Assembly (NCBI RefSeq): GCF_006345805.1
Contig: NC_043003.1
Coordinates: 102,610,001 to 102,674,000, forward strand
From: Octopus sinensis
Taxonomy: Eukaryota
DNA length: 64,000 nt
Reading direction: 5' to 3'
The stretch's first letter is position 1. Every line of letters starts with the position of its first letter. Made by a program: the position numbers and the translations under genes. Below, in pieces: positions 8,357 through 8,421 of the stretch. Under the pieces are notes generated by a model. It ran no database searches and was not told where the DNA came from. It was given only the letters and a program-made list of their open reading frames with translations.

Positions 8357-8421
8357 ATGGGATTACCCTGGGTTTCACGTCCATAAAGCACTTAGCTTCA
8401 TGGTGTATCATCAGATCCCAT
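8357..8421 (-). ncRNA. Type I hammerhead ribozyme
   Basis: Minus strand: AUGGGAU-CUGAUGA-uacaCCAUGAAGC uaagu GCUUUAUGGacgu-GAAA-CCCaGG-GUA^-AUCCCAU; intact core, 7-bp stem I. Confidence 0.85.

Follow-up and report, generated by a model that had tools for sequence, protein, structure and literature searches.

Hammerhead ribozymes in the terminal repeats of Penelope-like elements (PLEs) have already been described, together with solo truncated copies, and an octopus element of the Hydra clade with the same layout has been published. According to the sections of Cervera and De la Pena (2014, PMC4209133) cited here, most PLE hammerheads are solo copies from truncated PLEs, and those of metazoans feature an unpaired base between positions 9 and 10.1, a long helix II and a palindromic helix III. 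The same sections report that the Schistosoma motif has no activity as a monomer and that dimers have low activity. Elements of the Hydra clade are characterized, in the portions of Craig et al. (2021, PMC8557442) used here, by a CxCX5C linker, no CCHH motif, and CxxC and CxH motifs near a conserved E and N. In File S2 of that paper, the Hydra-1_oBim hammerhead is listed with one additional base following A9, with A-U closing helix II and with a helix III of the 4+1+4 form; by our count, 17 of its 26 Hydra rows have a helix III of 4 bp with a 1-nt loop. Cleavage assays on Hydra-clade motifs are absent from the parts of the literature examined, and a literature search for insertions between A9 and G10.1 found nothing.

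Here we analyze a hammerhead motif on the reverse strand of a 64,000-nt stretch of Octopus sinensis DNA (hereafter the window; Table 1). It is very probably a remnant of the 3' end of a Hydra-clade PLE, truncated, decayed and likely inactive.

Table 1. Hammerhead-related features and their positions in the window
Feature	Position	Strand	Basis
Type I hammerhead motif, PLE/Hydra variant	8356..8422	-	Sequence, folding, descriptor search
Core CUGAUGA (C3-A9)	8408..8414	-	Sequence
Extra unpaired U8407 between A9 and 10.1	8407..8407	-	64-copy tally
Helix II, 9-bp distal stem, 5-nt loop	8377..8406	-	Folding, 64-copy tally
GAA and palindromic helix III (4+1+4)	8365..8376	-	Folding
N17, the A of GUA; cleavage predicted between 8364 and 8363	8364	-	Sequence
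Very probable 5'-truncated, aged 3' end of a Hydra-clade PLE; ribozyme and ~85-nt tail	8270..8420	-	83-87% identity, endonuclease linkage
Predicted junction hairpin, 10 bp, sequestering the stem I 5' strand in longer transcripts	8415..8437	-	MFE of 8340-8440 and longer
Ambiguous TA-rich junction, overlapping stem I	8416..8433	.	14/18 bases alike to 454-bp repeat
5'-truncated monomer of a separate, apparently young 454-bp tandem/inverted repeat (retrozyme-like)	8434..8760	+	104 matches
Second hammerhead-like motif	8577..8658	+	9-bp stem I, CUGACGA, A.A at helix II base
More truncated Hydra-family relative: 3' half and tail, core incomplete	54935..55041	-	Sequence comparison

A hammerhead motif of the PLE/Hydra variant

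The initial annotation described the motif as an intact canonical hammerhead, and much of its anatomy proved accurate. All core nucleotides are present, namely CUGAUGA, GAAA (8376-8373) and a GUA site whose A, at 8364, is N17, and the cut was correctly placed after this A. Stem I (8422-8415/8363-8356) has the 7 bp reported, or 8 bp with U8422-A8356, its outer pairs being supplied by junction sequence. The 9-bp distal stem II (8403-8395/8389-8381) is also there and includes one G.U pair. The sequence therefore has the CUGANGA/GAAA/UH core of a hammerhead, and pairing of three helices around it, with helix I open, is predicted to be possible. For stem III, the ACCC/GGGU sequence stands (8373-8365), but its two halves enclose a single base, so a monomer could form at most 3 bp with a triloop, a state predicted at +0.4 kcal/mol with a probability of 0.04 or less. 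A homoduplex of two copies would have 8 bp in helix III, at a predicted -11.6 kcal/mol.

The label "canonical", in contrast, has to be dropped. A canonical hammerhead has G10.1-C11.1 right after A9 and a 4-bp helix II; here A9 is followed by an extra base, the closing pair is A-U and the helix is 12 bp long. Its proximal part consists of just two pairs, A-U then C-G, an A8404.C8379 mismatch and a bulged A8380. The motif shares the 13-nt core and the topology of Schistosoma-type hammerheads, but it differs from them in lacking a 4-bp, G-C-closed helix II with loop 2 and any evident contact between loops 1 and 2, and in being missed by Rfam. With its extra U8407, A-U closure and 4+1+4 palindromic helix III, it agrees with published type I hammerheads of the PLE/Hydra variant.

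The motif is real and beyond chance. A relaxed type I descriptor had two matches in the window compared to one in 150 dinucleotide shuffles, and no shuffled match combined a stem I of at least 6 bp with a helix III of at least 4 bp. Rfam returned nothing at its gathering threshold over the 64 kb, and at E≤10 over 8200-8800 it returned no hammerhead, just microsatellite miRNA and snoRNA matches and snoZ122 at E=1. This last match covers 8356-8422 and could point to a C/D-box snoRNA, yet its 22.6 bits fall short of the gathering score, 38, and no D box precedes the terminal stem. Neither a snoRNA nor a chance motif has more than a negligible probability. The motif recurs across the family at one set position within a retroelement, and both ideas are refuted by the shuffle control together with the 238 15-mer matches and the endonuclease linkage at 13 of 15 loci given below.

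The repeat family and its link to Hydra-clade elements

The 151-nt piece at 8420-8270 has 83-87% identity to all eight tailed copies tested (8/8). An exact 15-mer from this piece has 238 matches in the 2.72-Gb genome, compared to one for its reversed control. At least 47 DNA matches are listed for it, with non-self identities of 76-92% (best 40 of 1415 candidates scored). Copies terminate in (TA)n; in many, 5' pieces are present in inverted orientation. A repeat search within the window itself was swamped by microsatellites.

The unusual features of the motif recur across the family, as judged from samples that were drawn by DNA or 15-mer similarity and are biased toward window-like copies. 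Our tally covers 64 ungapped copies, 28 of the 92 extracted having been left out for indels or a missing 5' half. The extra base after A9 is U in 42 copies, A in 18, C in 3 and G in 1; 57 copies have A-U as the 10.1-11.1 pair, 61 retain the bulged A of helix II, and 62 have A at N17. U1.7 is U in 60 of the 64 and faces a U in 56. At position 8404 the family majority is G, and the A of the window copy is a CpG-type change.

We also aligned the window copy with 43 of 54 "full" copies, excluding 11 with deletions, rearrangements or near-duplication. Across these 44 rows, 85.5% of cells are paired under the hammerhead structure, a share that falls to 25-45% when the structure is slid as a control. 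Covariation was not above control, its score being reached in 69 of 500 shuffles and the count of pairs with two-sided changes in 253 of 500; several of the two-sided changes represent CpG decay. Two compensatory changes mark subfamilies, A-U to G-C in stem I (6/44) and C-G to U-A in helix III (7/44), and each may be a single event. A candidate pseudoknot between loop 2 and a downstream CUUA was dropped, as a second subfamily has CAUA there.

Longer copies extend up to ~900 nt upstream, into the decayed end of a GIY-YIG-type ORF with a CxCx5C linker and no CCHH, in which GIY and YIG are split, CxxC precedes the conserved E and CxH follows the N. Among the 15 loci that ranked best by endonuclease protein alone (150 of 16146 candidates scored), the window piece lies 87-162 nt downstream of this ORF, on the same strand, in 13, and the hammerhead core is intact in just 6. 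Two loci, L096 and L097, contain RT motifs, thumb, endonuclease and ribozyme in that order. The order of RT, C-terminal GIY-YIG and ribozyme is seen in these two and in L098, and not in the window copy. At L097 a ribozyme copy stands on each side of the RT and endonuclease, the two 2970 nt apart, in a pseudo-LTR layout. The DKT and RWK motifs were not found for the window family, the N-terminus being mostly missing from the loci fetched; L022 has a decayed DKT region only.

We assigned the family to the Hydra clade from these motifs and the Craig 2021 supplement, compared by eye. Pfam matched none of six endonuclease and RT fragments (0/6), and a protein search with the endonuclease found one homologue among 15 candidates, in Octopus bimaculoides, at 63%. 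Like Hydra-1_Obim, the family has a C-terminal GIY-YIG without CCHH, the CxCx5C linker, a hammerhead near its 3' end and (TA)n targets, and its ribozyme shares the extra base after A9, the A-U closing pair and the 4+1+4 palindromic helix III. By eye, its tail also resembles the 5' start of Hydra-1_Obim. It is nonetheless a sister family, with 57 of 78 amino acids identical in one segment (L088, compared by eye) and a different ribozyme sequence. Helix II has 12 bp and a bulged A rather than 7 bp, the cleavage site is GUA rather than GUU, and the spacer between GIY and YIG, which is rich in Ser, Asn and Thr, measures ~400-530 nt (L024, L040, L088, L094 and L098) rather than ~26 aa. On sequence grounds, this is a second, abundant octopus-type Hydra family beside Hydra-1_Obim, and it could be new. 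Neither this exact family nor the 454-bp repeat described below was found in the literature searched; Repbase, Dfam and most supplements lay outside that search.

The comparison extends to the minimal PLE hammerheads in the cited sections of PMC4209133, with which the family shares the unpaired base between 9 and 10.1, the long helix II, the palindromic helix III, solo truncated copies and nearby pairs on opposite strands; a Drosophila virilis variant there has a helix II bulge too. In those sections, however, G10.1-C11.1 is highly conserved, in contrast to the predominant A-U pair here, and helix III is minimal rather than 4+1+4. Because Hydra-1_oBim also has A-U, G10.1-C11.1 appears not to be obligatory in Hydra elements. 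Non-LTR retrozymes, as treated in the parts of Cervera and De la Pena (2020, PMC7229834) used here, have the same type of ribozyme. Retrozymes consist of non-coding monomers in tandem that each carry a type I hammerhead, whereas the window family is tied to an RT/endonuclease ORF and is dispersed, with no short tandem arrays.

The neighboring 454-bp repeat and other elements in the window

The initial annotation noted CpG-rich DNA upstream of the hammerhead on the same strand. This DNA exists (8434-8760), but it is a different repeat, with its own hammerhead-like motif on the forward strand that had been overlooked. The repeat unit of 454 bp has 104 matches, the best at 96-98% identity, with units 451-456 bp apart in tandem and with inverted arms, and 69 exact 22-mer matches. 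Arrays reach up to seven units with a hammerhead-like motif in each (G000:C16:33747930-33750694 and C12:71289166-71292119), so the repeat consists of tandem monomers that are several hundred bp long and each bear a type I hammerhead. As such, it fits the description of non-LTR retrozymes in the portions consulted of PMC7229834 and of a preprint by Li et al. (2026, 10.64898/2026.07.22.740005), and we regard it as a putative young hammerhead tandem repeat, retrozyme-like in sequence. Its motif within the window has an 8-nt palindromic helix III and a GUU site, and it is predicted to fold poorly in context, 4.7-11 kcal/mol above the minimum free energy (MFE).

The hammerhead and the CpG-rich DNA adjoin, and they overlap in the 18-nt junction, where most bases are alike to the 454-bp repeat, as would be expected if the two formed one retrozyme- or SINE-like unit. 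This is highly improbable, and at the level of the copies it is refuted by the match ends and by unjoined family copies. All 104 matches of 8760-8340 end at or before query position 345 (8416), tandem copies of the repeat run on into other sequence and have their own motif on the opposite strand, and no other listed Hydra-family copy is joined directly to this upstream DNA. The junction itself may be a target remnant, microhomology or a fold-back. It is bridged by no listed contig and is thus known from the assembly alone; in run X19, one contig is an exact match to 8260-8383. The presumed-RNA contigs X1-X3 have matches only to other copies of the Hydra family and the 454-bp repeat, and X4 and X5 gave no match at 98%; these comparisons speak neither for nor against expression. 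At L025 (1481-1592, forward strand), a copy is truncated at the same point as the window copy and has the same TATGGGAT start, a hint that stem I is a favored site of truncation or fold-back.

We propose that the Hydra stub and the repeat have separate histories. In the active ancestor, precursor RNA that was in tandem or read through would have been cleaved by the ribozyme after GUA; the architecture and published PLE work suggest that it most likely acted as a dimer held together by pairing of two palindromic helix III strands. Starting at the 3' end of that RNA, the RT and GIY-YIG endonuclease would next have made copies in (TA)n DNA, in most cases broken off early, so that ribozyme-only stubs were scattered. 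The 454-bp repeat would have come to lie head-to-head against the stub later, an order suggested by its identity of 97% compared to about 85% for the Hydra family.

Elsewhere in the window, the truncated relative that had been reported at ~55013-55041 is real and longer than thought, at 54935-55041. It is 74% identical to a family copy and 77% identical to the window piece over 43 nt, it is without the CUGAUGA half, and it has GAAC in place of GAAA. Close by, at 55084-55644, an inverted pair (84% over 137 nt) represents a third hammerhead family with cores at 55207 (reverse strand) and 55524 (forward strand), a G-C closing pair and a very long helix II; stem I or the core is damaged in both members. 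The stretch between them (~55330-55480, forward strand) contains the beginning of an ORF whose NIPT and MRWKA motifs resemble the N-terminus of Hydra-1_Obim. Further short CUGAUGA...GAAA motifs occur at 14970-15010 (reverse strand, core at 15004, 4-bp helix II) and in the flanks of L005 and L007, and several other hammerhead-bearing repeat families seem to exist in this genome.

A broken PLE fragment lies at 9535-10810 on the reverse strand (Pfam RVT_1, E=1.8e-4; GIY-YIG, E=3.3e-5). Its CxxC linker and CCHH-like residues suggest what we take to be the Neptune type. It was considered and rejected as the parent of the hammerhead, since tblastn over L001-L080 detected it at the loci of the window itself and at no other locus there, and we conclude that it is unrelated to the hammerhead family. 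The window also contains, on the forward strand, non-LTR RT fragments (36343-38051; RVT_1, E=1.6e-20), a mariner-type transposase fragment (42198-42536; Transposase_1, E=2.4e-7) and an ORF like a LINE 3' end (62533-63024) with no Pfam match.

Predicted activity of the window copy

The initial annotation ranked this motif as the best single candidate for activity, a ranking that comparison with its relatives does not support. Ten of the 64 sampled copies combine the core with a stem I of at least 5 bp, three proximal pairs, a distal stem of at least 8 bp and a 4-bp helix III, and the window copy does not. A second motif that passes the descriptor lies just 160 nt away on the other strand (it also folds poorly). 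With A in place of G at 8404, helix II loses its third proximal pair and keeps two. Moreover, the window copy begins at 8420 and has lost the family's outer stem I, so the seventh and eighth pairs are made by junction bases. At the 5' position of the outer pair the family has U in 56 of 64 copies, whereas in the window A8421 pairs with U1.7.

Folding predictions point the same way. In the 8340-8440 transcript proposed in the initial annotation, the junction hairpin is predicted to outcompete stem I, which has a probability of 0.13 and the hammerhead fold lies 4.2 kcal/mol above the MFE; in longer contexts the stem I probability is predicted at 0.04 or less. Across all contexts that include 8437-8415, the fold is 2.9-7.6 kcal/mol above the MFE with a stem I probability of at most 0.13. 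When the transcript is trimmed to 8340-8425, stem I is predicted to form well (probability about 0.99). The window copy is not extreme in this regard, as 5 of 15 other copies have a lower predicted stem I probability in context.

With the same origin, the window copy might still work efficiently as a monomer, cleaving read-through transcripts that come, for example, from the same-strand PLE fragment at 9.5-10.8 kb, and it may have been co-opted by the host. All of its core bases are intact, and a 3-bp helix III with a triloop is possible. The axolotl HHR_Amex2, which has a weak helix II base, reached 22% monomer cleavage in 1 h in the sections consulted of PMC7229834. The ribozyme part is also less diverged than the tail (5/64 versus 13/84 differences) and ties for fourth of 27 copies for fewest differences. 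This gap is not significant (Fisher p=0.21), however, and the motif was chosen for its intact look. The predicted cost of the hammerhead fold in contexts including 8437-8415, the low activity of PLE-type hammerheads even as dimers (in the cited sections of PMC4209133), and the absence of a second intact copy as a dimer partner in the window or the preceding 6 kb all weigh against efficient monomeric cleavage, which we consider very unlikely. There is no sign of selection on the window copy.

Taken together, the models lead us to predict that the window copy, as a decayed Hydra-clade remnant, is weak or silent in self-cleavage. Cutting in vivo at a meaningful rate is very unlikely, and for the trimmed transcript the chances of slow cleavage at high RNA and Mg2+ are about even.

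The family itself may have more to offer. In the portions used of PMC11875169, freeing U1.7 roughly doubled turnover in one engineered ribozyme; that paper cites a proposed U1.7-A Hoogsteen contact, and one of its section titles says that U7 is not essential. Speculatively, and with the odds clearly against it, this family could be a subtype in which the unpaired U1.7 docks on the bulged A instead of relying on contact of loop 1 with loop 2. The bulged A, three pairs up the 12-bp helix II, would then mimic the U1.7-A Hoogsteen pair that speeds minimal hammerheads. If so, intact family members would cut efficiently, and the window copy would be slowed because the junction-derived A8421 pairs with U1.7. 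What PLE hammerheads do is still described as unclear, and the better-preserved copies of this family would be a modest test case, the window copy being a poor one.
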